DNA of 64,000 nucleotides, taken from the NCBI GenBank assembly GCA_043812155.1, contig JBDRMK010000011.1:16111-80110 (forward strand), in the 5' to 3' direction. Made by a program: the position numbers and the translations under genes. Below are positions 7,018 to 63,761 of this stretch, piece after piece (the first letter of the stretch is position 1; every line of letters starts with the position of its first letter). The notes under the pieces are model-generated. The model made no database searches. It saw only the letters and a list, made by a program, of their open reading frames with translations, and was not told where the DNA came from. The stretch is from Patescibacteria group bacterium. Lineage in GTDB: Bacteria > Patescibacteriota > Patescibacteriia > JAXHNJ01.

Positions 7018-7524
7018 ATGACTCTTAGAAAAATATATTTACAGGAACAATGCTATTTTTTGACCACCAATGTTTTGAATAAGCTGTGGGTTTTTGGCCA
7101 CTTTAAAAATACTATTTATGTTCCGGCAATTCAGTTATGCGATGTCATTATTAATGATTTAAATTTCTACCGCCAAAAATTTCAGTTTCAATTGCACGGA
7201 TATGTTATAATGCCAAATCATTTACATCTAATATTAACAATTGGCAGTATAGGAAATGTCTCCGAAATAATGCGGGATTTTAAAGGTCATACTAGCTACG
7301 AAATAAACAAATTATTAAAAAATAAGAGTGGATTCTGGCAAGAAGATTTTTATGAACATACTATAAGAAACGAGCAAGATTTCGCCGAAAAAATGAATTA
7401 TATCCATAATAATCCAGTTAAATCTAATTTCGTAAAAAATCCGGCCGATTTCAAGTATTCAAGTTTTAGAAATTATTATTTGAATGATGATTCCGTGATC
7501 AAAATTGATAAAATTGTTAAATAA
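7018..7524 (+). CDS. REP-associated tyrosine transposase (RAYT) / IS200-like Y1 HUH transposase
   Basis: HUH motif in ..GYVIMPNHLHLIL.., later catalytic Tyr region (..HTSYEIN..), flanked on both sides by the same REP palindromes. Confidence 0.7.
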   Translation: MTLRKIYLQEQCYFLTTNVLNKLWVFGHFKNTIYVPAIQLCDVIINDLNFYRQKFQFQLHGYVIMPNHLHLILTIGSIGNVSEIMRDFKGHTSYEINKLLKNKSGFWQEDFYEHTIRNEQDFAEKMNYIHNNPVKSNFVKNPADFKYSSFRNYYLNDDSVIKIDKIVK

Positions 7525-39912: not shown

Positions 39913-40647
39913 ATGACGAATAAAAGAAAAATATATATCGGCACTTCCGGCTGGCAGTATAAACACTGGTACGAGGTTTTTTATCCGGAAGACGTTAAGT
40001 CTGATGGCTTGCTCCAATATTACAGCCAGCATTTTAAGAGCGTGGAATTAAACGCTTCTTTTTATCATTTGCCGAAACCGGAAGTTTTTCAAGGCTGGTA
40101 CAAAAAAACTCCGAATGACTTTCTTTTTAGCGTCAAAGCCAGTCGTTATATCACCCATATTAAAAAATTAAGAGACTTTGAAGAGGGCGGGACGCGATTT
40201 ATTGAGGCCGCCAAGGAATTAAAAGAAAAGCTGGGCCCTATCCTTTTCCAATTGCCGCCTTTTTTAAAAGCGAATAAAGAAGTTCTAGAAACGGCTATAA
40301 AAATATTGCCAAAAGATTATAAATACGCTTTTGAATTCCGGCATGGAAGCTGGTTTACACCGGAGATTTATGATATTCTGAAAAAGCATAATGTCGCTTT
40401 AGTGATGGCGGATTCCCCAAATTTTCCTTTGAAAAAAGAAATCACCGCCGACTTTATTTATCTTCGCTTTCATGGTTCAAAAAGTCTGTACGGTTCAAAA
40501 TATACGGAAGAAGAATTAAACTCCTGGGCCAAAGACATTATGGCTTGGCAAAAGCAGGGGATGGATATATACGCTTATTTCAACAATGACGCGGAAGGGT
40601 ATGCGGTGGAAAACGCAAAGCAGTTAGAAAATTTATTGTCACCCTGA
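39913..40647 (+). CDS. DUF72 (YecE/UPF0759) family protein
   Basis: ..IYIGTSGWQYKHWYEVFYP.. family signature. Confidence 0.75.
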   Translation: MTNKRKIYIGTSGWQYKHWYEVFYPEDVKSDGLLQYYSQHFKSVELNASFYHLPKPEVFQGWYKKTPNDFLFSVKASRYITHIKKLRDFEEGGTRFIEAAKELKEKLGPILFQLPPFLKANKEVLETAIKILPKDYKYAFEFRHGSWFTPEIYDILKKHNVALVMADSPNFPLKKEITADFIYLRFHGSKSLYGSKYTEEELNSWAKDIMAWQKQGMDIYAYFNNDAEGYAVENAKQLENLLSP

Positions 40648-40670
40648 GGTGCGCAGCCTCGAAGGGTGAC
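40637..40670 (+). repeat. palindromic repeat TGTCACCCTGAGGTGCGCAGCCTCGAAGGGTGAC overlapping DUF72 stop codon
   Basis: stem GTCACCCT/AGGGTGAC; inverted copy at 11868-11910. Confidence 0.45.
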
Positions 40671-40813
40671 CTATTAAGAAAATTACTGCTATACTTCGAG
40701 GTCATTCGCTGCCGCTCATGACACCTCATTATGACAGTTTGCGGGGAAGGGCGGTGGAAAATGCACGGAAGATGATTGAGATATTGAGCTATTAAAATAT
40801 TAAATTTTTATTC

Positions 40814-40842
40814 TTGACGACTAAATACATATCCATTAAGAT
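40814..40842 (+). promoter_or_regulatory. sigma70-like promoter TTGACG-17-TAAGAT for island 2
   Basis: seen in sequence. Confidence 0.4.
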
Positions 40843-40889
40843 AACGGAATAATCAGAATTTTGCACCTTATCAACGCGGGAGGAAAATC

Positions 40890-41135
40890 ATGGCTATTGA
40901 GGATGTTAAATGGGCGATATGGATGGCTGCTGCAATGGCGAGAGGCAAAGAATATAATGGCAAATTCCATCCTCCTTGGCAGGTAACGCCTCGTCATATG
41001 CAGTTGGGTTGTGATTACGATTTTGCTGCCCTTCTCAGCGCTCAGGGTTATAAGGAATTGAAGGCTTTCAAGGCACGCGTGGCCAAAATAAAAGAAAGAC
41101 ACGTGCGGGAAAGGTTGACCGAAAGCGGCAAATAG
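40890..41135 (+). CDS. hypothetical small protein, island 2 gene 1 (SD GGAGG)
   Basis: 81 aa; strong SD; GC ~50%. Confidence 0.4.
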   Translation: MAIEDVKWAIWMAAAMARGKEYNGKFHPPWQVTPRHMQLGCDYDFAALLSAQGYKELKAFKARVAKIKERHVRERLTESGK

Positions 41136-41150
41136 CTCTGGAGGTCGGAG

Positions 41151-41336
41151 ATGTCCAAATTCGTCTGGTCGGCACCCGAGAACACATTTTTTGACCATTT
41201 TGATGAAAATGGTAACCGTCTATTTTCCGAATCACGAATTTTCGGCCGACAGGACAGACGGATTTCAGCCGGTGAATGGAGAAAATTTCTCAAAAGGCTT
41301 CAAACCCTGAAAGCGAGAATAGCCAAGAGGCGTTAA
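41151..41336 (+). CDS. hypothetical small protein, island 2 gene 2 (SD GGAGG)
   Basis: 61 aa; strong SD. Confidence 0.35.
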   Translation: MSKFVWSAPENTFFDHFDENGNRLFSESRIFGRQDRRISAGEWRKFLKRLQTLKARIAKRR

Positions 41337-41368
41337 AATCTGTATTCATTCAACAGTAGGAGGGAACT

Positions 41369-41548
41369 ATGCCCATTATTGAAACGTCATCAGGCGAAAA
41401 ATTGATTGTCTTCCAAGGCGAGTCGCGGAGAACAGAACTTATTTGCGACGAGGCATTACAGGATGCTTTGCGCGGCGAACATGGCGATTACGCTCCTTTC
41501 AAAGAATTCCTGCGAAGAATGCGGAGGTTAAGACTGTCTCAGACTTGA
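41369..41548 (+). CDS. hypothetical small protein, island 2 gene 3 (SD AGGAGG); below ORF-track length cutoff
   Basis: 59 aa MPIIETSSGEKLIVFQGESRR..; strong SD; followed by terminator. Confidence 0.35.
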   Translation: MPIIETSSGEKLIVFQGESRRTELICDEALQDALRGEHGDYAPFKEFLRRMRRLRLSQT

Positions 41549-41586
41549 GATGGCCGAAAAACCAGATTGTTCATCATTCGTTAATC

Positions 41587-41610
41587 GAGCGCTTCGGCGC
41601 TCTTTTTTTA
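41587..41610 (+). terminator. rho-independent terminator GAGCGCttcgGCGCTCTTTTTTT
   Basis: 6-bp GC stem, tetraloop, T8. Confidence 0.7.
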
Positions 41611-41628
41611 TTCCAAAATTTTGTTATA

Positions 41629-42507
41629 ATGATTTTAATGAGCAATATATCAAATGTACAACAAAACATTCCTCTTGCCCCTTACACTACCTTTAAAATC
41701 GGCGGGCCGGCGAAGTTTTTTGCGGTAGTTAAAAATGAAGGGGAAATAATTGAAAGCTTGAAATGGACTAAAGAAAACAAGCAGCCATATTTTATTCTCG
41801 GACACGGAGCCAATATTTTGGTAAGCGATAAGGGGTTTGACGGATTGGTGATTAAAAATGAGATGAGGAGATTAGAGATTAGGGATGAGGAGGTGACAGC
41901 TGACTCCGGCGTAGTGCTTTCAGAGTTGATTGGAAAATGCGCGAGTATGGGTTTGAGCGGCCTGGAATTTTTGGCCGGCGTGCCTTCCACTCTCGGCGGC
42001 GCGATTTTTGGAAACGCGGGGGCGCCGGAAAAAGCGATTGGTAATTTTGTGGTGAGCGCAAGAATTTTGGATAAAGGGTTTAAAGTAAAAGTGCTTAGCA
42101 AGAGTGAATGCGGATTTGGCTATCGCCAGAGTGTTTTTCAAAGTAACGAACTTATTGTTTTGTCGGCCGCTTTAAAAATGGAAAAAGGCAACACCGAAAA
42201 AATCATAGAAAGCATAAAAAATTTGATGCTTAAGAAAAAGGAAACGCAGGACTTGGAGAATCCTTCCGCCGGCTGCGTGTTTAAAAATGCCGATGGATAT
42301 TCCGCCGGCCAGCTGATTGATGAGCTGGGCCTTAAGGGTAAAAAGATCGGGCAGGCGCAAGTTTCGGAGAAGCACGCCAATTACATTATCAATTTAGGCG
42401 GAGCCACCGCAGACCACGTGGTCCAGCTGATAAGTTTTATTAAACAGCAAGTGCGGGATAAAAAAGGCGTGCAACTCCAGGAAGAAATAAAATACATCGG
42501 ATTTTAA
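41629..42507 (+). CDS. murB: UDP-N-acetylenolpyruvoylglucosamine reductase; ORF-track start 41443 rejected (runs through terminator)
   Basis: ..LAPYTTFKIGGPAKFF.. FAD-binding N-terminus; TATAAT at 41625-41630 immediately upstream. Confidence 0.85.
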   Translation: MILMSNISNVQQNIPLAPYTTFKIGGPAKFFAVVKNEGEIIESLKWTKENKQPYFILGHGANILVSDKGFDGLVIKNEMRRLEIRDEEVTADSGVVLSELIGKCASMGLSGLEFLAGVPSTLGGAIFGNAGAPEKAIGNFVVSARILDKGFKVKVLSKSECGFGYRQSVFQSNELIVLSAALKMEKGNTEKIIESIKNLMLKKKETQDLENPSAGCVFKNADGYSAGQLIDELGLKGKKIGQAQVSEKHANYIINLGGATADHVVQLISFIKQQVRDKKGVQLQEEIKYIGF

Positions 42508-42534
42508 AAGTCGAGACACTTCGGTGCGATTCAG

Positions 42535-42573
42535 TGTCAACCCTTCGGCGCGGCTCAGGGTTGACATTTTTTT
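42535..42573 (+). terminator. rho-independent terminator TGTCAACCCttcggcgcggctcAGGGTTGACATTTTTTT
   Basis: 9-bp stem plus T7. Confidence 0.65.
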
Positions 42574-42825
42574 ATAATTGATTTTTTTACTAAAATAAGC
42601 TAAAATAAAAAAGAACTGATTGAAATAAATAGTTGAAACTTATTAGAAATTTTTTTTAAAAAAGTTTTATTATTTCATTTTTTTGGCTCTACGTACTGAA
42701 AAATATAAAATTACATAAATAATAAAAAAAATTATTTAAATTCTAAAAATAATATTTAAAACAATAAAATTGAAATATTTTTGCCAAAATAAGTTATCCA
42801 CAGGATAAATCGAGGAATTAATAAT

Positions 42826-44430
42826 ATGCCAATCTTAGGTGTCCGTTACGGACAAAAAGTCTTGGTCAGCGAGCAGGAAAGCAAGCCAAACGGCAGTCCG
42901 GCTTCTAAAAATGAGGAGAAAAAAGAGGCGGCAGCTAAGCCTGATGAGAAAAAAAATGAAATAAAAGGCAAGGAAGCGCCTTTGGCGAAAAAGAACGGCG
43001 AGGTAAAAAAAGAGGTGAAGGAAGTTGACGGCCGAAATTTGCCGAATGAAAAGAACTTCGCTTCTTTGCGAAAATTCAAAAAGTTCTGGAAGCTCGGGAT
43101 TCAGGAGCTGAATACCGAGTACTTTGATATAAACCAGGACGGGATACTGACCGTGAAAGAGGGGAATAATCAGTATAATATCAAGCAGCTGGTGGATAAA
43201 TACGGCTCGCCGGTGGAAATATACTTTCCTTTTATCCTTGAGGAAAGACTGACCAGCATCATCGATCTGTTTAATTTTTACATCAAATACTTCAAGTATC
43301 GCGGAAAATTCTTTTATCATTATCCGATGAAGGTCAATCAGAACAAGGAGATCATCCTGCCGATCGTCAGCGAAGGCGCCAACCTGGAGGCCAGCTCATA
43401 CAATGAATTATACCTGGTAAAAAAACTCTGGGAGCAGGGGAGCTTTCACGAAAAAATCCGCGTCATTTGCAACGGGCCGAAAACGGAAAAATATCTGGCT
43501 TTAATAGAGGAGTTAAGAAGCAATAATCTATCCATCATCCCGATCATTGAAGACGATAAGGAGCTGGAATTTCTGCAAAAATACAAAGGTGACGTCGGCA
43601 TCCGAGTGGATTTAAGGACGAAGGTGCATTCCTATTGGGATAAGAAGATTAATCGTTACGGTTTTTCCGAGGAAGAGATAAAAAAAATTGGAAAAGTCAG
43701 AAACTTAAAGATTCTTCATTATCATTTAGGTTCGCAGATAGAATATTTAGACGATATTTTTAATTCCGTTAAAAAGGGGATGGAGGTATACGTTCAACTG
43801 AAAAAGAAAAATCCAAGCCTAGACACTTTAGATATCGGCGGCGGACTGCCCATCCCATACGAACGGAAAAAACATTACAGCATTGATAGCCTGGTGAGGA
43901 GAATTATCCGTCATCTTGATTCGGTCGCGGACCAGAAAAAAATACCGCCGCCGGACATCATTTGCGAATGGGGCCGCTTTGTCGCCGCGCCGGCGCAGAT
44001 GACTATTTTTAAAATTTTGTCTTCAAAGCCGATTCCCAAAGGCAACGCCAAAGCCTGGTATGTCATCGACGGGAGTTTTATGAATGATTTAATGGATACT
44101 TGGGCCATCCACCAGTGCTGGCATGTTCTGCCGGTCAATCATCTGAACGCCAGCAAACTCAGCCGTTGCTGGCTGGCGGGCTTGAGCTGCGATACCGATG
44201 ATAAATATATCGCTCATGGCCATTATGTTTTATTGCCGAAATTATCCAATTTGGCGGAAGGAGAGAGTCTCTATGTCGCTTTTCTTGACACCGGCGCCTA
44301 TCAGAACGCGTTGGCTTCACACCATTGTCTTCTTTCCTGGCCGGCCAGGCTCTTGGCGCAGAACGGCGAAGTAAGGCAGATCCGCCGTCATGAAACACCG
44401 GATGACGTGGGAAAAATATACGGCTGGTAA
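42826..44430 (+). CDS. speA: biosynthetic arginine decarboxylase (PLP, fold type III) with ~100-aa K/E-rich N-terminal extension
   Basis: ..YPMKVNQ.., ..LEASSYNEL.., ..HYHLGSQ.., ..DIGGGLPIPY.. SpeA hallmarks. Confidence 0.7.
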   Translation: MPILGVRYGQKVLVSEQESKPNGSPASKNEEKKEAAAKPDEKKNEIKGKEAPLAKKNGEVKKEVKEVDGRNLPNEKNFASLRKFKKFWKLGIQELNTEYFDINQDGILTVKEGNNQYNIKQLVDKYGSPVEIYFPFILEERLTSIIDLFNFYIKYFKYRGKFFYHYPMKVNQNKEIILPIVSEGANLEASSYNELYLVKKLWEQGSFHEKIRVICNGPKTEKYLALIEELRSNNLSIIPIIEDDKELEFLQKYKGDVGIRVDLRTKVHSYWDKKINRYGFSEEEIKKIGKVRNLKILHYHLGSQIEYLDDIFNSVKKGMEVYVQLKKKNPSLDTLDIGGGLPIPYERKKHYSIDSLVRRIIRHLDSVADQKKIPPPDIICEWGRFVAAPAQMTIFKILSSKPIPKGNAKAWYVIDGSFMNDLMDTWAIHQCWHVLPVNHLNASKLSRCWLAGLSCDTDDKYIAHGHYVLLPKLSNLAEGESLYVAFLDTGAYQNALASHHCLLSWPARLLAQNGEVRQIRRHETPDDVGKIYGW

Positions 44431-44444
44431 TTAATATACTATTT

Positions 44445-45581
44445 ATGGTTAATGCCGAAAAAAAGAAAATATTAGGCGGCAAGCACGAGGCCAGAAACGG
44501 TTTTGCCGACGGTTTTATGCCTTTGGAATCCCTGGATCTCTCAAAAATAAAGGACGCGGACGAAATGCTGCAGGCAATGAGCAAGACTTCTTTTGCCGGC
44601 CGGGGCTTGGGCGAAGCGGCTGATGTTTTATATGAAATGATCACCGATCCCGATTGTTTCGTGGTGGCCACTTTTTCCGGGGCGATGACGGTGGCCAAAA
44701 TGAGTTTAGTGATCTGCGATATGATAGATTATGGTTTAATTAATGCAGTGGTTTCCACCGGTGCCTTGATGGCCCATGGTTTGGTGGAAACGACCGGCCA
44801 GACCCATTTTAAGTATAATTTTGAGTATAACGATGATGACCTGGGTTTTGCCGGTTATGACCGCGTATATGACACCCTGGAATTGGAAACGAATCTGGAT
44901 AATCTGGAAAATATTGTCCGCCAGGTTTTTACAAGTCTGTCCCCGGAAGAAAAAGTCAGCAGCCGCGTATTAAACGAAAAACTTGGTGAATATCTGATTA
45001 AGAAATCCAAGCAGCGGGGAATCGTTAAATCTGCCCGTGAGAAAAATGTTCCGATCTATATCCCGGCTTTTTCTGATTCTGAGTTGGGTCTTGATTTTGC
45101 CTTGTTCAACCGCCGGCAGAAAATTGACGGCAAAAAAACCTTGACCTTTGATCCTTTTCTTGATCTGGAACATTTCGCGGAAACGATCTTAAAACAGAAA
45201 AAAATCGGCATCTTTACCATCGGCGGCGGCGTGCCGCGCAATTGGGCCCAGCAAGTCGCCCCTTATCTTGATCTGATCCGTTACCGTATCGTCACGAATT
45301 CCGACCCGAAAAGATATTATGCTGATAAAAAAGACCCGTACATCAAAGAATACACTTACGGAGTAAGGATCTGCCCGGAGCCGGTTAATTGGGGCGGACT
45401 TTCCGGCTGCACTTATTCCGAAGGGGTTTCCTGGGGAAAATTCAAGGACCCGCGCAAAGGCGGGAAATTCGCCGAAGTCTTATGCGATGCCACCGCCGTC
45501 TGGCCTCTACTTGTAAAAGGAACTTTGGAAAGATTGAAAAAGAATAAGATAAAGATCAGCAAAAAAATTGAATACGCCTAA
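44445..45581 (+). CDS. deoxyhypusine synthase-like / homospermidine synthase-like enzyme
   Basis: ..VSTGALMAHG.., ..GGGVPRNW.., and ..VSWGKF.. containing the DHS catalytic Lys motif SWGK. Confidence 0.6.
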   Translation: MVNAEKKKILGGKHEARNGFADGFMPLESLDLSKIKDADEMLQAMSKTSFAGRGLGEAADVLYEMITDPDCFVVATFSGAMTVAKMSLVICDMIDYGLINAVVSTGALMAHGLVETTGQTHFKYNFEYNDDDLGFAGYDRVYDTLELETNLDNLENIVRQVFTSLSPEEKVSSRVLNEKLGEYLIKKSKQRGIVKSAREKNVPIYIPAFSDSELGLDFALFNRRQKIDGKKTLTFDPFLDLEHFAETILKQKKIGIFTIGGGVPRNWAQQVAPYLDLIRYRIVTNSDPKRYYADKKDPYIKEYTYGVRICPEPVNWGGLSGCTYSEGVSWGKFKDPRKGGKFAEVLCDATAVWPLLVKGTLERLKKNKIKISKKIEYA

Positions 45582-46470
45582 AATATTTATGAAAAAACTA
45601 TACGAATTATATCCTTATAACTTCGGCCAGGTTTATGGCCAAAGTTTGGAAAAAGCAAAAATTTGCGTTATTCCGGTTCCTTATGAAGCCACGCTTTCTT
45701 ACCAGGCCGGCGCCGGAAGGGGTCCGGCTGCCATTATTGAAGCTTCGCGCCATCTTGATGAAATGTGGGATTCTTTGAAAGAAGGGGAGCTTTCTGGTTT
45801 TAAAACTTCGGATGTTTATACTTTTGATGAGGTTATTTTATCAAAAAATTCCGTCATAGAGGCTTTAAAATGTTTGGAGCAGTTTATCAGCGAAGAAGTG
45901 GTAAAGAAAGAAAAATTTCCCTTAGTATTAGGCGGCGAGCATTCACTGACTTTTCCGGCCGTTAAAGCGTTAAAAAGAAAATACAAAGATCTGTCCGTTC
46001 TTCATTTTGACGCGCATACTGATCTGCTTAACAGCTTTGAAGATTCAAAGTATAATCACGCCTGCGTTATGCGGAGAATTCATGAGTTAAATATAAAAAC
46101 CGTGTCCATCGGGATTCGCAATATAAATTACGCGGTCACAGATTATCTTAAAAAGAGGAGGTCAAAGAACGTATATTATATGCCGGAAATTCCCGGCTTA
46201 GAAAAGATATTAAAGGCATTGTCAAAAAACGTTTATCTCACTTTTGATCTTGACGCTTTTGATCCATCCATCATGCCTTCGGTCGGCACGCCGGAACCGG
46301 GCGGTCTTTTCTGGTGGCCGACCATTGAATTGCTGAATAAAATCATCCCAAAAGTGAATCTAGTCGGCGCGGACGTCATGGAATTAAAACCGATTCCGGG
46401 CCTGGAAGCCCCGAATTTTCTGGCCGCCAAACTCGTCTATCATATCATTAGAGCCAAATTAACTTCGTAA
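45568..46470 (+). CDS. speB: agmatinase (ureohydrolase family)
   Basis: ..LHFDAHTDL.., ..SVGTPEPGGL.. arginase-family Mn-binding motifs. Confidence 0.8.
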   Translation: MNTPKIFMKKLYELYPYNFGQVYGQSLEKAKICVIPVPYEATLSYQAGAGRGPAAIIEASRHLDEMWDSLKEGELSGFKTSDVYTFDEVILSKNSVIEALKCLEQFISEEVVKKEKFPLVLGGEHSLTFPAVKALKRKYKDLSVLHFDAHTDLLNSFEDSKYNHACVMRRIHELNIKTVSIGIRNINYAVTDYLKKRRSKNVYYMPEIPGLEKILKALSKNVYLTFDLDAFDPSIMPSVGTPEPGGLFWWPTIELLNKIIPKVNLVGADVMELKPIPGLEAPNFLAAKLVYHIIRAKLTS

Positions 46471-51517: not shown

Positions 51518-52942
51518 ATGGCTAAAAATAAATATCAAATCAGTTTTTGGTATATCATAATCCTATTTTTCGGGGTTATTTTTTTTGCTCCAAAAATTTC
51601 TTTAGCCGTCAATACTATTGTTCCGGAAGTAAAAATCTTCAGTGATAGTCAGCAGGTCAAGAGCTTTTACGGTTTTGACCTGGGTTTCCGCGGCGGCGTG
51701 AGAGTGGCGTCTGGCGATGTGGACGGCGATAACGTGGATGAAATAATCGTCGGAGCAGGCGCAGGCGGGGGACCGAATGTTCAGATCTTCAAGGGAGACG
51801 GAAAAAAGATAAAAAGTTTTTTGGCATATGACAGGAATTTTAGAAAAGGGATTAAAGTGGCGGCCTGTGATATTGATAATGATAATGTTGACGAAATAAT
51901 TACAGCTCCCGGTCAGGGGGGCGGGCCGAACGTGAAAATTTTTAAAGCCGACGGTACTCAGCTTCTCAGTTTTATGGCTTATGGTTCAAGCTTTCGCGGC
52001 GGCGTCAATGTGGCTTGTGGGGATATAATCGGCGACAGCCAGCCAGAAATCGTGACCGGGCCTGGAATCGGTGGCGGACCTCAGGTAAGAGTTTTTAACG
52101 CGTCCGGACAAAGTTTAAATTTAGATATCTGGCCCTTTGAATTTAAGCATCAGGGTGGAGTCAATGTGGCGGTCGGAAATTTTACGGGCGATTTTAAAAT
52201 GGAAATCGCGGTAACGGTTCAGAAATTGGGCAAACCGGTGATTGAAGTTTATGATAATTTAAAAAATAAGATCGCTGGCTTTTACGCTTTTAACTCAGAT
52301 TTTCACGGGGGAGTAAATTTGGCGGCCGGGGATTTGGACGTTGATGGTTTCGACGAAATTATCGCCGCGGCGGGTGATTCCGGCGGGCCCCAAGTCATTA
52401 TTTTTAAATATAACGGAAAAAAATTACCCGGAAGCTTTTTCCCTTACCCTAAGGATTTTAAGGGCGGAGTTTTTCCGGCGGCGGGTGACGTCAATGGTGA
52501 CTTAAAAATTGAAGTAGTGACCGGTCCGGGTTTTATGCCGGATACGCGTTATTCCTACTACCAAAAATATTTGGATGTGAATTTAACCGAACAAAAATTG
52601 TCGCTGTACGAAAATGGGGTAGTCTTGGGCGTTTATACGATTTCTTCAGGTAAACCCGGAATGGATACTCCGCAAGGAATTTTCAAGGTTATGAGTAAAA
52701 GTCCTAACGCTTATTCAAAAAAATACGCTTTATACATGCCGTATTGGATGCAGTTCACCGGGCAAGGCCACGGTCTTCATGGTTTGCCCTATTGGAAATT
52801 AAGAGGAGGCGGAGTGATTAAAGAAGGCGTCAATCATTTGGGCATCCGCGTTTCCCATGGCTGCGTCCGACTTTCTTGGGAAGCGGCGGAAAAGGTTTAC
52901 AATGAAGTGGAAATCGGTACACCGGTCATTGTTCATAGCTAA
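51518..52942 (+). CDS. secreted FG-GAP-repeat beta-propeller fused to C-terminal L,D-transpeptidase (YkuD) domain
   Basis: signal peptide; ~7 repeats ..FRGGVxVAxGDxDGDxVDEIIxxxGxGGGPxVxIF..; C-terminal ..HGLHGLP..GIRVSHGCVRLS.. Confidence 0.7.
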   Translation: MAKNKYQISFWYIIILFFGVIFFAPKISLAVNTIVPEVKIFSDSQQVKSFYGFDLGFRGGVRVASGDVDGDNVDEIIVGAGAGGGPNVQIFKGDGKKIKSFLAYDRNFRKGIKVAACDIDNDNVDEIITAPGQGGGPNVKIFKADGTQLLSFMAYGSSFRGGVNVACGDIIGDSQPEIVTGPGIGGGPQVRVFNASGQSLNLDIWPFEFKHQGGVNVAVGNFTGDFKMEIAVTVQKLGKPVIEVYDNLKNKIAGFYAFNSDFHGGVNLAAGDLDVDGFDEIIAAAGDSGGPQVIIFKYNGKKLPGSFFPYPKDFKGGVFPAAGDVNGDLKIEVVTGPGFMPDTRYSYYQKYLDVNLTEQKLSLYENGVVLGVYTISSGKPGMDTPQGIFKVMSKSPNAYSKKYALYMPYWMQFTGQGHGLHGLPYWKLRGGGVIKEGVNHLGIRVSHGCVRLSWEAAEKVYNEVEIGTPVIVHS

Positions 52943-52967: not shown

Positions 52968-52990
52968 AACGCTTTTTAGCGTTATTTTTA
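52968..52990 (+). terminator. rho-independent terminator AACGCTttttAGCGTTATTTTTA
   Basis: 6-bp stem plus U-run. Confidence 0.55.
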
Positions 52991-52995
52991 TATCC

Positions 52996-53024
52996 TTGAC
53001 TTTGCATTCTTATCACAGTATATT
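52996..53024 (+). promoter_or_regulatory. sigma70-like promoter TTGACT-17-TATATT driving heliorhodopsin gene
   Basis: seen in sequence, 22 nt upstream of start. Confidence 0.5.
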
Positions 53025-53045
53025 TTAAATGAAAGGAAAACATTT

Positions 53046-53831
53046 ATGGAACAGCCATTAATATCGAATGAAGAGAAAAAATTTAAAAATTTGCGGATTT
53101 TTAACTTAGTTATGGCCATTTTCCACGCGGTTCAAGGGGTATTAATGCTGGTATTAAGCTCAAGTTTTGCCTTGCCTGTGACTACCGCTTTTGTGAAATT
53201 CAGCCCGGCTTCTGGCAAACTAGAGCCATTTTTAAATACCGCCTTTAATCTTAAGATTGGACCGCTGGTCGCCGCATTTCTTTTTCTTTCCGCCCTAGCC
53301 CATTTATCCGTTTCCACTTTTTTATATCGCTGGTATGTGGATAATTTGAAGAAAGGCATGAATTTAGCTCGCTGGATCGAGTATTCTTTCAGCGCTTCCT
53401 TGATGATCGTCGTAATTTCCATGCTGGTCGGTATTTATGATGGAGTAAGTCTTATACTTTTATTCTTTTTGAATATGATGATGATCCTATTCGGCTGGAT
53501 AATGGAGTTGCATAATCAAACGACCAGCAAGACCAATTGGACCTCGTTCATTTTCGGCTGCCTGGCCGGCGCCATCCCTTGGGTGGCGGTGGGGTTGTAT
53601 TTATTCGGTTCCGGTTCGCCCGGCGCAAAACCGCCGACGTTCGTCTATTGGATATTTTTCTCTATTTTTCTCTTTTTCAATGTCTTTGCCATTAATATGG
53701 TTTTGCAGTATAAAAAAACCGGGAAGTGGCGTGATTATCTACACGGAGAGAAGGTTTATATTATATTAAGTCTGGTCGCCAAATCACTGCTGGCCTGGCA
53801 GGTTTGGGCCGGAACATTAAGACCAGTATAA
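53046..53831 (+). CDS. heliorhodopsin (7-TM retinal protein, inverted topology family)
   Basis: near-collinear match to heliorhodopsin hallmarks: ..RIFNLVMAIFHAVQGVLMLVLSSSFALP.., ..RWIEYSFSASLMIVVIS.., ..MILFGWIMEL.., ..FGCLAGAIPW.., ..VLQYKKTGKWRDYLHGEKVYIILSLVAKSLLAWQVWAGTL.. (Schiff-base Lys in SLVAKS). Confidence 0.85.
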   Translation: MEQPLISNEEKKFKNLRIFNLVMAIFHAVQGVLMLVLSSSFALPVTTAFVKFSPASGKLEPFLNTAFNLKIGPLVAAFLFLSALAHLSVSTFLYRWYVDNLKKGMNLARWIEYSFSASLMIVVISMLVGIYDGVSLILLFFLNMMMILFGWIMELHNQTTSKTNWTSFIFGCLAGAIPWVAVGLYLFGSGSPGAKPPTFVYWIFFSIFLFFNVFAINMVLQYKKTGKWRDYLHGEKVYIILSLVAKSLLAWQVWAGTLRPV

Positions 53832-53836
53832 AAAAT

Positions 53837-54475
53837 ATGAAGAAAAAATACATTACAATCATTATTGTAATAGTGGCTATCGGCGGATTTTTATTACTTG
53901 CTCGGGTGATAACCGGCGAAGACGTTTGGCTGTGCGTTAACGGAAGCTGGCAAAAACATGGCCAGCCTTCTTCTCAAATGCCGACCAGCGGTTGTGGCAA
54001 TGAACAGATTGAGGAAAATATTAATACAAATTCAGGTATCTCTAGTTTTGAAGAATGTATAGAGGCGGGTAATCTTATTCAGGAAAGCTATCCGCGCCGT
54101 TGCACCGCAGACGACGGGGCGTCCTTTACAGAAGATATCGGCAACGAATTAGATAAGCAGGACATAATTAAAATAACCTCACCTCGGCCGAATGAAAAGA
54201 TTGCCAGCCCGCTGGTTATCATTGGCGAAGCCAAAGGGACGTGGTATTTTGAAGGGATATTTTCCATAAAACTATTTGACGAAGATAACAATATTATCGC
54301 CACGGCTAATGCTCAAAGCCAGGAAGATTGGATGTCCGAGGATTTTGTCAGTTATAAAGCGACATTGGAGTTTACTGCTCCTTCCGAGGGGAAAGGATCG
54401 CTCATTTTAGAGAAAAGCAATCCTTCGGGCTTGAATCAAAATGCGGATCAGTTAGTTGTGCCGATTACATTCTAG
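53837..54475 (+). CDS. membrane-anchored extracytoplasmic protein: Cys-rich module plus Gmad2-type Ig-like domain; likely co-transcribed with heliorhodopsin
   Basis: N-terminal TM (MKKKYITIIIVIVAIGGFLLL), 6 Cys, C-terminal ..ITSPRPNEKIASPLVIIGEAKGTWYFEGIF.. Gmad2-like; 5-bp gap after upstream stop. Confidence 0.5.
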   Translation: MKKKYITIIIVIVAIGGFLLLARVITGEDVWLCVNGSWQKHGQPSSQMPTSGCGNEQIEENINTNSGISSFEECIEAGNLIQESYPRRCTADDGASFTEDIGNELDKQDIIKITSPRPNEKIASPLVIIGEAKGTWYFEGIFSIKLFDEDNNIIATANAQSQEDWMSEDFVSYKATLEFTAPSEGKGSLILEKSNPSGLNQNADQLVVPITF

Positions 54476-54571
54476 TATTATTTAATTAGATAAGGGGCGG
54501 ATAATTTATTAGTAATTAAGGGAAATAGACTGTTTTGGTCCCATTTTTCTCGGATGGTTCCATATTTTATA

Positions 54572-54600
54572 TTGTCAAAATTAATAATATGCCTTATAAT
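54572..54600 (+). promoter_or_regulatory. sigma70-like promoter TTGTCA-17-TATAAT upstream of secD
   Basis: seen in sequence. Confidence 0.45.
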
Positions 54601-54611
54601 AAATACTAATT

Positions 54612-56294
54612 ATGTCCATTCGCAGAAAAGTCTGGCTCACCTTTATTGGAATTATTATCCTGGCTGTTTTGGCCGGGTTTGTTGATTATCCTAAAGGCCC
54701 GAATATCAGAATTGGCTCATATTTTAAGGAAATTAAAGTTCATTTAGGCCTGGATCTATCCGGCGGAACCAGCTTGGTTTATCAAGCGGATACTTCCAAT
54801 ATTCCCGAAGGCGATAAGGCTTCCGCTCTGGAGGGGGTAAGAGATGTTATTGAAAGAAGAGTCAATACTTTCGGAGTGTCTGAACCGGTTATCCAAACCA
54901 ATAAGTCCGGCGAAAATTGGCGGGTGGTAGTTGAATTGCCGGGAGTGACAGATATTAAAGAAGCGATCCAAAGAATCGGAGAAACGCCTCTTTTGGAATT
55001 TAAAGAAGAAGCGCCGCCGGTCGTTTTAACCGACGAACAAAATAAAGAAATAGCGGATTATAATATCCAGGCCAAAAAGAAGGCGGAGGAAGTATTGGCC
55101 CTCGCTTTAAAAAGCGGCGCCGATTTTAGCGCTCTCGCCAGCGAATACAGTGAGGATCCGGGCAGTAAGGATCAGGGCGGGGATTTGGGCTTTTTTAACG
55201 AAGGGGATATGGTGGCGGAATTTAATGATGTTTCTTTTAATAAAGCTCAAAAAGGAGTAGTTTATCCGGAGCTAGTGGAGACAGTATATGGTTACCATAT
55301 TATTTTAAAAACTGACGAAAAGGAAACAGACGGCGTAAAAGAGGCGCGAGCTTCGCATATCCTAATTTTGAAAAAAAGCGAGGCTGATTATCAGACTGGG
55401 GGAGCATATGTTGATACCGGCCTTTCCGGCCAGCAATTAAAAAGAGCTTACGTGGAATTTGATAATCAAACAGGCGTTCCGACCGTGGGTTTGGAATTTA
55501 ATGATGAAGGCAAGAATTTATTTGCGGATATCACAGAGAGAAATATCGGGAAAATCGTCGCCATTTATCTGGATGGTTCCCCGATTTCTTTGCCTACGGT
55601 GAATGATAAAATCGCGGACGGACGGGCGGTTATCAGTGGAACATTTAGTTTAGATGAAGCCAAGACTCTGGCTCAGCGTCTGAATTCCGGCGCCTTGCCC
55701 GTTCCCATAACTTTGATCAGTCAGCAGAATATTGGCGCGACATTAGGCAAGATCTCGGTCCAGAAAAGCTTATTCGCCGGTCTGATCGGCCTTTTAGCCG
55801 TGGCTGTTTTTATGATATTTTTTTACCGCTTACCCGGCTTGCTTTCCGTATTAGCGCTTTTAAATTACACATTAATTGTCTTAGCGATTTTTAAACTTTG
55901 GCCGGTCACGATGACTTTGGCTGGAGTGGCGGGTTTTATCCTTTCTATCGGCATCGCGGTGGATGCCAATATTTTGATTTTTGAGCGCATTAAGGAAGAA
56001 TTACGCAGCGGAAAGCCTTTGGATTTAGCGGTGGAAGAAGGTTTTAAGCGGGCCTGGCTCTCAATAAGAGATTCCAATGTTTCTTCAATTATCACCTGCA
56101 TAATTCTGGCCTGGTTTGGCACCAGCCTTATTAAAGGATTTGCTATTACTTTAGCCATCGGTATTTTGGTTTCCATGTTTTCGGCGATCACTGTCTCCCG
56201 GACTTTTTTAAGATTAATCGTCGGGCCGCGGCTTTCTAAGCATTTGGCCTGGTTTGGAGTTAAACCCGATAATTCTTGGGAAAAAAATGTTTAA
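54612..56294 (+). CDS. secD: protein translocase subunit SecD carrying an inserted parvulin-type PPIase domain (approx. nt 55014-55317)
   Basis: SecD N-TM, P1 head (..IVAIYLDGSPISLPTV..GRAVISGTFS..), RND-like 6 TM C-terminus; insert ..ALKSGADFSALASEYSEDPGSKDQGGDLGFF..VYGYHIILKTD.. = parvulin signature. Confidence 0.85.
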   Translation: MSIRRKVWLTFIGIIILAVLAGFVDYPKGPNIRIGSYFKEIKVHLGLDLSGGTSLVYQADTSNIPEGDKASALEGVRDVIERRVNTFGVSEPVIQTNKSGENWRVVVELPGVTDIKEAIQRIGETPLLEFKEEAPPVVLTDEQNKEIADYNIQAKKKAEEVLALALKSGADFSALASEYSEDPGSKDQGGDLGFFNEGDMVAEFNDVSFNKAQKGVVYPELVETVYGYHIILKTDEKETDGVKEARASHILILKKSEADYQTGGAYVDTGLSGQQLKRAYVEFDNQTGVPTVGLEFNDEGKNLFADITERNIGKIVAIYLDGSPISLPTVNDKIADGRAVISGTFSLDEAKTLAQRLNSGALPVPITLISQQNIGATLGKISVQKSLFAGLIGLLAVAVFMIFFYRLPGLLSVLALLNYTLIVLAIFKLWPVTMTLAGVAGFILSIGIAVDANILIFERIKEELRSGKPLDLAVEEGFKRAWLSIRDSNVSSIITCIILAWFGTSLIKGFAITLAIGILVSMFSAITVSRTFLRLIVGPRLSKHLAWFGVKPDNSWEKNV

Positions 56295-61912: not shown

Positions 61913-62983
61913 ATGAAAATTTCTGAATTTAAAGAATGTAGAGAGCTTAATCTGAAATTTTTCGAATGTCCCTCCTCTCTTTTTTTATTAAACGGTATTA
62001 TTACCGTTATTTTAATCATATCCACTTTTATAATCACCCGTAAATTTTATTCGGAAGAGATCGCTTTTTTGTGCATCGTCTTTATTACGGTTGTGATGAT
62101 GGTTATTTCATACTTTGTCCATGCAGGTACTTCAAAAGTCGCCACCTCCAAAAAAAGATTGCAGGAAAGCAACGGTCAATTACGCGACACCCTTTTAAAA
62201 CTCAAAGAGGCGGAAAAAAGGCAGCAGGAGTTCACTCATATGATGGTTCATGATTTACGCTCACCCCTAAATGGGATACGCATGGTTTCGGAAATGGTGA
62301 TATCTGATTTAAAGAAAAAAGGATTGGCGGATTTATCAGAACCGTTGTCTTTAATAAATCAAAATGCGGTCAGTATGCTGACCGACGTCAATGATATACT
62401 TGATGTCGCGAAAATCGAAGCCGGCATGTTTAAACTTGATAAAAAAAAGGGAGATTTAATAAAATTGACTCAGAATATAATCCAGTATTTTATGCCAATG
62501 GCAGAAGGGAAAAATCTTATTTTGGAATTGAAGGGGGCGGATGCCCTGCCGGCCTTAAAATTTGACAAAGGGGCGATACGGCAGGTTTTTGAGAATCTGA
62601 TTTCTAATTCATTGAAATTTACCCCCGCTGGAGGCCGCATTACTGTACAGCTTTTAAAGCATCAAAAAAACACGGATATAAACGAGGAAGCGAAAAAACA
62701 GGGGATCAGCTGGCATTTAAAAGGCGGCGATATAAAATTAAACAGTCAGCCTGATTCTGTAGTCGTATCGGTCACGGATAACGGCGAAGGCATTTCACTG
62801 CCTAATTTATCCCGTCTTTTTAATAAGTTCGAATCAATGAAAATGTCGAGTAAGACCGGAGAGAAAGGGACGGGTTTAGGTTTGGTCATCGTTAAAGGGA
62901 TGATTGAAGCCCATGGAGGCGTGGTCGGGGTGGCAGCGAAAGAAGGCGTGGGCACGACTTTTTACTTTAATATACCTGTATAA
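61913..62983 (+). CDS. sensor histidine kinase (2 TM, HisKA + HATPase_c)
   Basis: H-box ..FTHMMVHDLRSPLNGI.., G2 box ..GTGLGLVIVKGMIEAHGG.. Confidence 0.8.
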   Translation: MKISEFKECRELNLKFFECPSSLFLLNGIITVILIISTFIITRKFYSEEIAFLCIVFITVVMMVISYFVHAGTSKVATSKKRLQESNGQLRDTLLKLKEAEKRQQEFTHMMVHDLRSPLNGIRMVSEMVISDLKKKGLADLSEPLSLINQNAVSMLTDVNDILDVAKIEAGMFKLDKKKGDLIKLTQNIIQYFMPMAEGKNLILELKGADALPALKFDKGAIRQVFENLISNSLKFTPAGGRITVQLLKHQKNTDINEEAKKQGISWHLKGGDIKLNSQPDSVVVSVTDNGEGISLPNLSRLFNKFESMKMSSKTGEKGTGLGLVIVKGMIEAHGGVVGVAAKEGVGTTFYFNIPV

Positions 62984-63001
62984 TTATTAAATATAAATAT
63001 T

Positions 63002-63382
63002 ATGAACACTAAAAAAATTTTAATCATCGAGGACGAAGCAGCGATTCTATATTCCCTAAAAGCGCGGTTAACAGTTGAGGGAATTAATACTTTGACCGCT
63101 TCTTCAGCGGAAGAAGGTTTTGAAATATTAAAAAAAGAAAAACCCGACGTCATACTTTTGGATATTATTTTGCCGCAGATGGATGGATTGTCTTTTATGA
63201 AGCAATTAAAAAACGACAAATCTTACCAGGATATCCCGATTATAATAATGTCAAATTTAAACAAAAAGGATAAAATTGAAAAAAGCCTTAAATTAGGCGC
63301 AAAAGATTATATCGTTAAATCGGAGTTTAATCTCGAATCATTAATTAACAAGATTAAAGATGTCATTACCCATGTCTCTTAA
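63002..63382 (+). CDS. single-domain response regulator (receiver only)
   Basis: ..KILIIEDEAA.., phospho-acceptor Asp in ..VILLDIILPQMDG.., Lys in ..KDYIVK.. Confidence 0.8.
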   Translation: MNTKKILIIEDEAAILYSLKARLTVEGINTLTASSAEEGFEILKKEKPDVILLDIILPQMDGLSFMKQLKNDKSYQDIPIIIMSNLNKKDKIEKSLKLGAKDYIVKSEFNLESLINKIKDVITHVS

Positions 63383-63761
63383 TAATAAGCGAATTTTGGT
63401 TATTGAGGACGACCCGGCAGAACTTTTTGCCATGAAAAAAATGATCCAGGAGGCTGGTTATGAGATTTTGACCGCCTCTGACGGCCAGACCGGATTGAAT
63501 CTCATTAAAAAGGAAAAACCTGATTTAGTCTTTCTGGATATTATCTTGCCCAAGATAAACGGCTTCGATATTTTAGAGCTGGTAAAAAAAGACCCCCAGG
63601 TCATGAAAATACCTATTATCGTTTTGACCAACCTAAACGACGAAGAGACAGCCATGAAATCTAGAACGCTAGGCGCGGCCGATCATTTAATAAAAATGCA
63701 GGTTTATCCCCATGATATTATCCGTAAAATAGATAAATTCTTAAATATCGATCAGGTATAA
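63372..63761 (+). CDS. second single-domain response regulator (receiver only)
   Basis: ..KRILVIEDDPAE.., ..LVFLDIILPKINGFD..; overlaps upstream gene end. Confidence 0.75.
   Translation: MSLNNKRILVIEDDPAELFAMKKMIQEAGYEILTASDGQTGLNLIKKEKPDLVFLDIILPKINGFDILELVKKDPQVMKIPIIVLTNLNDEETAMKSRTLGAADHLIKMQVYPHDIIRKIDKFLNIDQV

Follow-up and report, generated by a model that had tools for sequence, protein, structure and literature searches.

A Patescibacteria heliorhodopsin gene followed by a Gmad2-domain gene: a pairing found in one narrow clade

Introduction

Does the heliorhodopsin (HeR) gene of a Patescibacteria (CPR) genome form a conserved two-gene module with the Gmad2-domain gene that follows it? 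Such a module was proposed in a preliminary description of this locus, which lies in a 64-kb window (the whole stretch of DNA analysed, in which all positions below are numbered). If true, it would open a new way to study what heliorhodopsins, whose function is still poorly understood, do in CPR bacteria that depend on hosts and are auxotrophic for retinal. The features of the locus are collected in Table 1.

Table 1. Position and nature of the features recognised around the heliorhodopsin gene
Feature	Position	Strand	Details
Intrinsic-terminator-like hairpin (AACGCT-TTTT-AGCGTT) with T-run	52968..52990 (hairpin 52968-52983)	+	Sequence scan and fold
Sigma-70-like promoter (predicted)	52996..53024	+	-35 TTGACT (52996-53001), 17-nt spacer, -10 TATATT (53019-53024)
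SD-like box GAAAGGAAAA	53031..53040	+	AGGA core ends 8 nt ahead of the ATG
Heliorhodopsin gene	53046..53831	+	261 aa; ATG start, TAA stop
Gmad2 gene	53837..54475	+	212 aa; ATG 5 bp past the HeR TAA

Identity and key residues of the heliorhodopsin

The identification as a heliorhodopsin had been based on five hallmark motifs, all of which are found in the 261-aa translation, and it is borne out by profile searches. The protein matches Pfam PF18761 (E=3.2e-100, 334.9 bits against a cutoff of 26.7, profile positions 1-242 of 242) and the NCBIfam HeR equivalog NF038020 (346.9 bits against a cutoff of 100, positions 1-244 of 244), in both cases over the full length and above the curated cutoff. Solved structures matched include those of TaHeR (6is6, E=9e-86, 57% identity), the heliorhodopsin of the Thermoplasmatales archaeon SG8-52-1 (PDB 6is6, 7u55 and 7clj), and of 48C12 (6su3, E=2e-60, 45% identity), the founding member of the family (PDB 6su3 and 6uh3). 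An identical protein is on record at NCBI as "heliorhodopsin HeR [Patescibacteria group bacterium]", and Patescibacteria are the source of most of the source-named entries among the best 120 homologues. In comparisons with relatives the dN/dS of HeR is 0.04-0.07 and that of SecD likewise 0.04-0.07, with synonymous sites close to saturation (dS above 1) in these estimates; HeR and its neighbour SecD are under equally strong purifying selection. The protein is thus an ordinary, previously annotated heliorhodopsin, with a gene context that is variable, as already described for the family.

The conserved Lys, Glu and His residues of the preliminary description are all in place when the protein is aligned with 48C12 (window/48C12: H27/H23, S82/S76, H86/H80, N106/N101, R109/R104, E112/E107, S242/S237 and K246/K241). 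The functional residues comprise Lys246 as the Schiff-base lysine, Glu112 as the counterion, and His27, His86, Ser82, Asn106 and Ser242. Glu112 is the single counterion of TM3, and together with the Schiff-base surroundings (H27, H86, S82 and N106) it is identical to its 48C12 counterpart. In TM7, S242-L-V-A-K246 aligns with S237...K241 of 48C12 and with the TaHeR equivalents, which gives the SxxxK motif of heliorhodopsins, as opposed to the DxxxK found at this position in type-1 rhodopsins. With the helices positioned by homology to TaHeR, the Lys and Arg residues on the inferred cytoplasmic side (N-terminus, TM2-3, TM4-5 and TM6-7 loops) amount to 4+4+1+5 = 14, against 2+0+1+1 = 4 on the opposite, outer side. 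These loop charges fit the predicted inverted topology, with the N-terminus in the cytoplasm, as had been anticipated, and the C-terminus outside.

Transcription and translation signals

The terminator-like hairpin upstream of HeR closes an FG-GAP/YkuD L,D-transpeptidase gene (51518-52942), and its fold has a centroid energy of -6.8 kcal/mol. The promoter-like site that follows scores 10 of 12 and is for this reason near-consensus, so that of the terminator and consensus promoter originally described both elements stand and only the word consensus does not. Promoter-like matches in this AT-rich region number 19, against 15 +/- 4.4 in shuffled sequences, a count which alone is not above the shuffles. 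The hairpin with its T-run, the -35 and the -10 nevertheless occur at aligned positions in three related contigs (L081, L082 and L084), where the -35 reads CTTGnC/T and the -10 is A/T-rich; the hairpin stems differ among the relatives (ACCC/GGGT, CACC/GGTG, CACCC/GGGTG) while self-complementarity is retained. The GAAAGGAAAA box is kept in the same three contigs and in a further relative, L001. SD-like tetramers precede 9 of 48 genes in the window, compared with a background of 10%. The view of an SD-less genome thus roughly holds for the window, although not for the HeR gene, which is one of the nine. Taken together, these signals indicate that the HeR gene is provided with a predicted terminator, promoter and ribosome-binding arrangement of its own, which is conserved in relatives.

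The downstream Gmad2 gene

The product of the downstream gene matches the Pfam Gmad2 family (PF10648, E=5e-12, 46.4 bits against a cutoff of 25.7) over residues 111-192, and an identical 212-aa protein is already at NCBI as a Gmad2 domain protein. It begins with MKKK followed by a single TM helix (residues 6-24), which predicts type-II membrane anchoring and an extracytoplasmic location, with a cytoplasmic part of only about 5 residues. The membrane-anchored, Ig-like neighbour of the earlier account is thereby confirmed, but to call it Cys-rich was an overstatement, since it has just four cysteines (33, 53, 74 and 89) in 212 aa; according to the family alignment these fall into two small modules of two Cys each (W-x-C...C, residues 31-53; FEEC...C, residues 71-89). 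The C-terminal Gmad2 domain (111-211) is modelled by AlphaFold2 as an Ig-like beta-sandwich of seven strands (pLDDT 92.3). A Foldseek search of the PDB with this model returned nothing but generic Ig-like sandwiches, among them GbpA domains, Caf1M, the sulfite oxidase C-terminal domain, CopC/PcoC and TapA, and no match had an E-value better than 4e-3. An assignment of function from structure was therefore rejected in spite of the confident model, and no functional inference was drawn. We know of no established biochemical function for the Gmad2 domain family.

The 5-bp gap between HeR and Gmad2 shows no hairpin, whether in the sequence itself, in a terminator scan or in a fold. Because the gap is so short and no terminator lies in it, the Gmad2 gene is very probably on the same transcript as HeR, as had been suggested. 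Beyond the Gmad2 gene, a scan of 54476-54611 detected no terminator site and 54470-54560 shows no significant structure (z = 0.68), and transcription may read through into secD; secD also has a strong promoter-like site of its own (TTGTCA-17-TATAAT, 11 of 12).

Distribution of the HeR-Gmad2 pairing

When the synteny of relatives was surveyed, HeR-Gmad2 adjacency proved to be confined to the immediate clade, represented by four contigs (L081, L082, L084 and L085) whose HeR is 87-90% identical to that of the window. In this clade ykuD-HeR-Gmad2-secD-secF is syntenic as a whole block and the HeR-Gmad2 junction is kept at 3-5 bp; in L084 another gene has been inserted between Gmad2 and secD, with the HeR-Gmad2 junction intact. 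In the next relative, L001 (HeR 82% identical), the order ykuD-HeR-secD-secF is kept and Gmad2 is absent, HeR being followed by secD after 88 bp. Across the clade Gmad2 is 62-73% identical and HeR 87-90%, with dN of 0.19-0.27 and 0.08-0.09, respectively, which corresponds to an evolution of Gmad2 two to three times faster than that of HeR.

None of 80 species-representative HeR loci has an adjacent Gmad2 gene, and a Gmad2 gene within 6 kb of HeR was found in just two of them (L014 and L066), on the opposite strand and 2.6 and 5.4 kb off. Conversely, HeR is found in none of 80 Gmad2-family metagenome loci, about 52 of which extend 800 bp or more upstream of the match, nor near four more distant full-length Gmad2 homologues (L087-L090). 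One of these four homologues lies in JBMOKY010000001.1, which carries both genes, approximately 180 kb apart. Gmad2 is not listed in published surveys of HeR neighbours (PMC8612252, PMC11109279), and a literature search returned no paper with both heliorhodopsin and Gmad2 terms. It follows that the proposed conserved two-gene module does not hold, by the yardstick that its proposal had itself set (conservation next to HeR in relatives): since the pairing is limited to one narrow clade, HeR-Gmad2 is not a conserved module that explains HeR function. What is predicted here is a same-strand gene under the HeR promoter, with a junction shared by four related contigs; recurrence in independent lineages beyond inherited synteny was not found in the loci surveyed. 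The Gmad2 protein belongs to a family of membrane-anchored surface proteins that is widespread in Patescibacteria and usually encoded elsewhere in the genome. This negative synteny result spares effort on a false lead.

Other heliorhodopsin neighbours and retinal supply

No universally conserved HeR neighbour was found among the 80 loci. The largest recurring group consists of ABC transporters, found in 16 loci without a fixed position; in 8 loci an unannotated lipoprotein of some 180 aa is encoded upstream of HeR, response regulators lie nearby in 5 and Pyr_excise proteins in 4. Tight downstream neighbours in other loci are heterogeneous. The idea that heliorhodopsins are generally trailed by an anchored exported protein, as a non-homologous analogue of Gmad2, was rejected, because proteins with a single N-terminal anchor are not enriched there: they account for 2 of the 15 genes tightly downstream of HeR, and for 16.5% of ORFs in the background. 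Likewise rejected was an independent link to HeR of the N-terminal W-x-C-x2-G-x-W-x-K-H-G-x-P...C module; this occurs in 2 of the 80 loci as a stand-alone small ORF, adjacent to HeR in neither (about 700 bp downstream with one gene between in L034, and about 3.4 kb upstream in L067). The neighbour classes reported to recur are glutamine synthetase (GS), NAD+ synthetase, photolyase, MerR, TerC, ABC transporter, SDR, alpha/beta hydrolase, DUF2177 and DUF2238 (PMC11109279), and Patescibacteria are among several phyla in which histidine kinases and response regulators lie within 10 kb of HeRs (Bulzu et al. 2021, PMC8612252).

Pfam scans of about 55 of the roughly 64 ORFs detected no SQS_PSY, lycopene cyclase, Blh/BCD or RPE65-type genes in the 64-kb window, in agreement with the reported lack of carotenoid and retinal genes nearby; the CPR-like character of the genome context was equally borne out. 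Rfam searches gave nothing credible (whole window at gathering thresholds; 40600-42900 by E-value scan), and ARAGORN found no tRNAs in the window. Heliorhodopsins have been reported from many CPR classes, where SLVAK is one of the most frequent TM7 motifs (PMC9166423), and organisms that lack a retinal pathway make use of them (PMC9296517). The source organism of TaHeR is one of these, and external retinal is described as entering the TaHeR apoprotein through an opening (PMC9296517); rhodopsin-bearing Saccharibacteria have no blh and take up external retinal, and retinal scavenging has been proposed for them (Jaffe et al. 2022, PMC9296517). That CPR bacteria auxotrophic for retinal possess heliorhodopsins, and that the gene neighbourhoods of these vary, has been published before.

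Explanations of the gene pairing

We consider it probable that the gene encodes a functional Patescibacteria heliorhodopsin and that the position of Gmad2 reflects a lineage-specific gene-order event and not a dedicated photoreceptor partner. By analogy with characterised heliorhodopsins, all-trans retinal would be bound at Lys246 with Glu112 as counterion, the photocycle would be slow and ions would not be pumped, and the protein may sense light and in response modulate other proteins. The chromophore would most likely be scavenged from the environment or a host, as has been proposed for TaHeR and the Saccharibacteria rhodopsins, because a retinal pathway is absent from the window and, to our knowledge, CPR bacteria generally lack one. 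The placement of Gmad2 behind HeR would represent a single lineage-specific event, inherited by one narrow clade. Being TaHeR-like, well conserved and preceded by clean regulatory signals, this heliorhodopsin is one further candidate for expression studies, of limited practical value.

It is unlikely that Gmad2 is a true lineage-specific partner of HeR in a genus-level clade, through which light would act on a function of the cell surface, for instance the remodelling of the envelope or attachment to a host. The TM helix or the ectodomain would then contact HeR at the membrane or at its outer face, where the ECL1 beta-hairpin and the extracellular C-terminus are located. The same-strand arrangement with a 5-bp gap and no intervening terminator agrees with such a partnership, as does the prediction that both products are membrane proteins, and characterised HeRs are reported to act by binding the products of neighbouring genes (PMC9529153, PMC9769723, PMC11109279). 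In addition, the 3-5 bp junction of the four clade members has survived dS above 1 and the gene insertion of L084, an observation that runs against the gene-order explanation and for which selection on a HeR-Gmad2 operon is a possible reason. Some HeR partners with experimental support (glutamine synthetase, photolyase and the ABC transporter) were also first spotted as operon neighbours in limited taxa, so that a narrow distribution alone does not exclude interaction. The pairing has nevertheless a single evolutionary origin, with the surrounding block co-inherited whole; it is missing from the syntenic L001 and from all 80 other HeR loci and all 80 other Gmad2 loci, both genes exist far apart in JBMOKY010000001.1, and Gmad2 diverges much faster than HeR. 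Glutamine synthetase and photolyase, both reported HeR partners, are soluble cytoplasmic enzymes. Gmad2 offers about 5 cytoplasmic residues, whereas intracellular loops take part in the contacts that have been discussed for OcHeR and OmrDE (PMC11109279). That, in one Patescibacteria genus, HeR recruited the Gmad2 Ig-like protein, exposed at the surface, to be its partner on the extracellular side is more doubtful still; such outward signalling, if true, would make this the first HeR to pass light information to the cell surface, for example for attachment to a retinal-supplying host.

Two further proposals look past Gmad2 to other genes of the window. HeR could be a sensory rhodopsin that passes its signal to a two-component system, made up of a histidine kinase and two single-domain response regulators whose genes lie 8-10 kb downstream (61913-63761), a proposal whose low probability falls between those of the two preceding ones. 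The window does encode a HisKA/HATPase_c kinase as well as Response_reg proteins, four loci (L013, L037, L041 and L068) have a homologous stand-alone receiver at 75-371 bp from HeR, and, as mentioned, histidine kinases and response regulators within 10 kb of HeRs are on record for Patescibacteria and other phyla (PMC8612252). Here, though, 8 kb and five unrelated genes intervene (secD, secF, a sigma-like factor, a DUF8128-type protein and a TraG/VirD4-like ATPase), genes for response regulators are common, and no experimental coupling of a HeR to a kinase was found in the HeR literature examined. The least probable of all is an association of HeR with the flanking FG-GAP/YkuD L,D-transpeptidase and SecD(PPIase)-SecF, by which HeR would light-modulate envelope biogenesis or protein export. 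The order ykuD-HeR-secD-secF is shared by the window, L081, L084 and also L001, yet local synteny is expected among close relatives without functional linkage. Beyond the clade, a SecD homologue lies within 6 kb only in L034 (28% identity, about 3.8 kb away) and YkuD homologues occur in just 4 other loci, none adjacent; secD moreover has its own strong promoter-like site, and a terminator-like hairpin ends ykuD ahead of the HeR promoter.

Comparison with known systems

TaHeR is the best solved match of the window protein (57% identity over 251 aligned residues), and the two share the His, His, Glu, Ser and Lys functional residues, the SLVAK motif of TM7 and a C-terminal GTLRP. They differ in host, which is archaeal for TaHeR and bacterial (Patescibacteria) for the window HeR, and in the extracellular TM5-TM6 loop, 4-5 residues longer in the latter. 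Relative to 48C12 (45% identity), H23, S76, H80, N101, R104, E107, Y108, S237 and K241 are identical. Several pocket positions are unlike 48C12 and as in TaHeR (S112 to Ala, W163 to Ile and Q213 to Met), and colour tuning or details of the photocycle may therefore differ from those of 48C12. The Gmad2 protein shares with PF10648 (GerMN-associated Ig-like domain) a domain above the Pfam cutoff; some homologues bear a Germane/GerMN domain (PF10646), in place of which the window protein has a TM anchor and its two two-Cys modules.

The partner operons AbHeR-glutamine synthetase, TfHeR-photolyase and OcHeR-OmrDE ABC transporter have, as here, a same-strand downstream gene and a predicted shared promoter, a pattern which is reported to have led to the discovery of those partners (PMC9529153, PMC9769723, PMC11109279). 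Gmad2 differs from the published partners in that it is not a listed recurrent class, is almost wholly extracytoplasmic and is HeR-adjacent in one narrow clade only. With the CPR/Patescibacteria HeRs and the Saccharibacteria type-1 rhodopsins (Chiriac et al. 2022; Jaffe et al. 2022; Bulzu et al. 2021) the window HeR has in common the host group and its reduced genomes, and with the published CPR HeRs the SLVAK motif and variable ('promiscuous') gene neighbourhoods; it does not differ fundamentally from them.

Identity, constraint and regulatory signals of the heliorhodopsin gene

The 261-aa product contains all five sequence motifs that the preliminary description had quoted as hallmarks of heliorhodopsins (HeRs), and is matched end to end by the Pfam Heliorhodopsin profile (E=3.2e-100) and also by the NCBIfam HeR equivalog (347 bits, cutoff 100). 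TaHeR (6is6; 57% identity, E=9e-86) and 48C12 (6su3; 45% identity, E=2e-60) are its best relatives with solved structures. Alignment with 48C12 equates Lys246 with K241, Glu112 with E107, His27 with H23 and His86 with H80, and further identities are found at Ser82 (S76), Asn106 (N101), Arg109 (R104), Tyr113 (Y108) and Ser242 (S237). The cytoplasmic N-terminus that had been anticipated is consistent with the loop charges (14 Lys and Arg on the inferred cytoplasmic side versus 4 on the other), which fit a predicted inverted, N-terminus-in orientation. The dN/dS ratio against related contigs, computed with synonymous sites near saturation, is 0.04-0.07, a range shared by the neighbouring SecD gene, which indicates a strongly constrained gene and no relic. 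About 7,900 homologues were retrieved at E <= 1e-20, the named top matches being mostly from Patescibacteria, and HeRs have been described in CPR bacteria, SLVAK being one of the commonest TM7 motifs (PMC9166423). The identification is correct, but the exact protein had been annotated so beforehand ("MAG: heliorhodopsin HeR [Patescibacteria group bacterium]", on a 103,868-bp contig), and the case is already known.

Candidates for the terminator and the promoter claimed to precede the gene were both located. Promoter-like matches in this AT-rich DNA numbered 19, versus 15 +/- 4.4 in shuffled sequence, so that the scan alone is little proof of a promoter. In the aligned intergenic regions of four related contigs the hairpin occupies an equivalent position, its stem sequences varying with self-complementarity kept (AACGCT/AGCGTT, ACCC/GGGT, CACC/GGTG, CACCC/GGGTG), and the T-run, a CTTG-type -35, an A/T-rich -10 and a GAAAGG box are also aligned. 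The comparison thereby lends reasonable support to a putative set of terminator, promoter and RBS that serves HeR specifically.

Coordinates of the features in the window and in related loci (L001, closest genome; L081, L082, L084 and L085, related metagenome contigs; other L numbers, HeR loci of the genome-collection scan)
Feature	Position	Strand	Remarks
Hairpin and T-run	52968-52990	+	upstream of HeR ORF
Promoter-like pair TTGACT-17-TATATT	52996-53024	+	after hairpin
GAAAGGAAAA box	between promoter-like pair and HeR ATG	+	AGGA core ends 8 nt before ATG
HeR ORF	53046-53831	+	ATG to TAA, 261 aa
Gmad2 gene	53837-54475	+	212 aa; Pfam Gmad2 domain at residues 111-192, E=5e-12
HeR-Gmad2 pair	L081		HeR 87% identical; gap 3 bp
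HeR-Gmad2 pair	L082		HeR 90% identical; gap 4 bp
HeR-Gmad2 pair	L084		HeR 87%, Gmad2 66% identical; gap 4 bp
HeR-Gmad2 pair	L085		HeR 88%, Gmad2 73% identical; gap 3 bp
136-aa gene	L001 5476-5886	+	no Pfam match; between ykuD and HeR
SecD with PPIase domain	54612-56294; L001 6875-8557; L081 3462-5144; L084 5856-7538	+ (window)	architecture kept in relatives
HisKA/HATPase_c histidine kinase	61913-62983	+	Pfam
Single-domain response regulator	63002-63382	+	Pfam Response_reg
Second receiver-like ORF	63360-63761	+	homology to stand-alone receivers found near HeR elsewhere
IS200-like Y1 transposase	7018-7524	+	Pfam Y1_Tnp, E=1e-11
Annotated murB ORF	41443-42507		
Region without convincing gene	40648-41700		roughly 1 kb
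Polyamine and deoxyhypusine cluster	42826-46470	+	
Stand-alone two-Cys module ORF	L034 7506-7694; L067 about 2400-2564		
Pyr_excise gene near HeR	L002 6781-7116; L064 3697-4077; L006 4380-4796; L018 7278-7607		
Lipoprotein gene, ~180 aa	L016 1737-2291; L025 5298-5870; L027 5337-5879; L041 5413-5973; L045 5029-5586; three more loci		

The downstream Gmad2 gene

The second gene does begin 5 bp past the HeR stop codon, and its product has both the N-terminal anchor and the Gmad2 domain ascribed to it; the single TM helix (residues 6-24, after MKKK) points to a predicted type-II anchor that would leave most of the protein on the outer side of the membrane. Its four cysteines lie in two small modules. 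NCBI already has an entry for the exact protein, under Gmad2 domain protein, and an alignment of 60 homologues defines a well-conserved Patescibacteria family with the consensus FEECxxAGxPVxESYPRQC...FTEDIGNELEK followed by the Ig-like domain, an additional N-terminal W-x-C...C module being present in a subset only. The TM helix together with this module (W-x-C-x2-G-x-W-x-KHG-x-P...C) is found in other Patescibacteria by itself too, in an ORF of about 60 aa, which makes it a small mobile extracytoplasmic two-Cys module. AlphaFold2 gave a confident model (pLDDT 92.3), whose structural neighbours in the PDB are all generic Ig-like sandwiches, so that a specific function cannot be assigned.

What had given the case its appeal, a HeR-Gmad2 module conserved across genomes, is unsupported, since adjacency is confined to a narrow, roughly genus-level clade; conservation of the neighbour in relatives had been set beforehand as a test. 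A genome-collection scan yielded 80 species-representative HeR loci, mostly from Patescibacteria with some from Actinomycetota and Thermoplasmata (56-82% identical); with a family HMM built from 105 homologues, none of these loci showed a Gmad2 ORF next to HeR, and two showed one on the other strand, at distances of 2.6 and 5.4 kb. Among the genomes L001 comes closest (HeR 82%), and its synteny with the window extends over SecA, FG-GAP/YkuD, HeR, SecD, SecF, a sigma-like factor, a DUF8128-type protein and a TraG-like ATPase; there, secD follows HeR directly after 88 bp, with no Gmad2 gene between. L001 also has an unrelated 136-aa gene, which by eye looks STAS/anti-sigma-antagonist-like, at a position upstream of HeR that is held in the window by the terminator and promoter spacer only. 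From the Gmad2 side, a metagenome scan with the family alignment gave 80 further loci (39-59% identity), about 52 of them extending for 800 bp or more upstream of the match, and none contained HeR. Four more distant full-length homologues (47-56% identity) have unrelated contexts, and JBMOKY010000001.1 carries both genes about 180 kb apart. The ykuD-HeR-Gmad2-secD-secF block is common to all of the four related contigs that are long enough. Taken together, these surveys, L001 and the related contigs indicate that the adjacency is one evolutionary event, inherited with its flanks by one narrow clade.

Other features of the window

Pfam annotation of about 55 of roughly 64 ORFs recovered rhamnose and nucleotide-sugar genes, a type IV pilus cluster, mur/ftsW cell-wall genes, SecA and SecDF, a polyamine and deoxyhypusine cluster, and a histidine kinase with two response regulators, which we take to be the content expected of a CPR genome; the nearest homologues of HeR, Gmad2 and flanking genes belong to Patescibacteria MAGs. 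As had been stated, no carotenoid or retinal biosynthesis gene is nearby (no match among the scanned ORFs). The SD-less character holds for most genes (an SD-like tetramer in 9 of 48), though not for HeR, which has one. Neither tRNA genes nor Rfam families at gathering score were found in the 64 kb. In the annotated murB ORF the first Pfam domain begins about 90 codons in from the start, which leaves a stretch with no convincing gene and no Rfam match. The transposase gene lies inside the nucleotide-sugar cluster. The polyamine cluster encodes a PLP-dependent Orn/Arg decarboxylase, an arginase/agmatinase-family protein and a homologue of deoxyhypusine synthase (Pfam DS, E=2.7e-74), the last of which we regard as unusual for a reduced bacterial genome. 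SecD (560 aa) harbors a parvulin-type PPIase domain (Rotamase_3, E=3e-23, residues 146-236) that lies within the extracytoplasmic P1 region, flanked by SecD_1st (75-133) and SecDF_P1_head (269-364); a search of the literature turned up no such fusion, its PPIase-SecDF associations all being non-covalent (PpiD/YfgM, SurA, Mycoplasma Mpn444).

Proposed function and comparison with other heliorhodopsin loci

The data show that this protein belongs to the HeR family, that its chromophore site is intact and that its gene is under strong purifying selection, with putative regulatory signals of its own. By analogy with characterised HeRs, Lys246 would bind retinal and Glu112 would be the counterion, the photocycle would be slow and non-pumping, and the protein would act by modulating other proteins. 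Rhodopsin-bearing Saccharibacteria lack blh, and external retinal scavenging has been proposed for them and also for HeR-using organisms; for TaHeR, uptake through an opening in the apoprotein has been proposed (PMC9296517). Because TaHeR is the closest solved relative, retinal would probably be obtained from outside.

Most probably the Gmad2 gene is carried along as a passenger when HeR is transcribed. That its product acts as a lineage-specific HeR partner on the extracellular side would suit its predicted anchoring and the 3-5 bp gaps; given a Gmad2 divergence 2-3x faster than that of HeR and the two surveys, we consider this quite improbable. No paper containing both "heliorhodopsin" and "Gmad2" was found, and Gmad2 is absent from the published recurrent HeR neighbour classes (PMC8612252, PMC11109279). 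The kinase and two receivers, 8-10 kb downstream of HeR, offer a weaker alternative link: in L013, L037, L041 and L068, HeR has homologous stand-alone receivers at distances of 75-371 bp, and the set is consistent with two-component genes reported near HeRs (PMC8612252). The conserved ykuD/secDF flanks are another weaker alternative.

Clustering of neighbours in the 80 HeR loci revealed no universal partner, and the tight same-strand downstream genes are diverse; by recognised motifs, we presume them to include peroxiredoxin-like, MFS-type transporter, VIT-like, UppP, MscL and flavin-reductase-like proteins. Single-anchor exported proteins show no enrichment among these downstream genes (2/15 versus a 16.5% background). 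The close neighbour found most often, in 8 of the 80 loci, is a family of unannotated lipoproteins, about 180 aa long, with a lipobox Cys and no Pfam match; they are encoded on the same strand just 5' of HeR, often at 18-125 bp. In two loci a Pfam-confirmed Pyr_excise UV-endonuclease (pyrimidine-dimer DNA glycosylase, E=3.5e-25) lies directly 3' of HeR, with gaps of 12 and 28 bp, and in two more it lies within 1.2 kb. Published recurrent neighbours comprise glutaredoxin/GSHPx, GS, photolyase, ABC transporter, alpha/beta hydrolase, MerR and TerC, among others (PMC8612252, PMC11109279). The mixed neighbourhoods agree with the published "photosensory promiscuity", and the Pyr_excise association, a link to light and UV damage, is reminiscent of the published pairing of HeR with photolyase.
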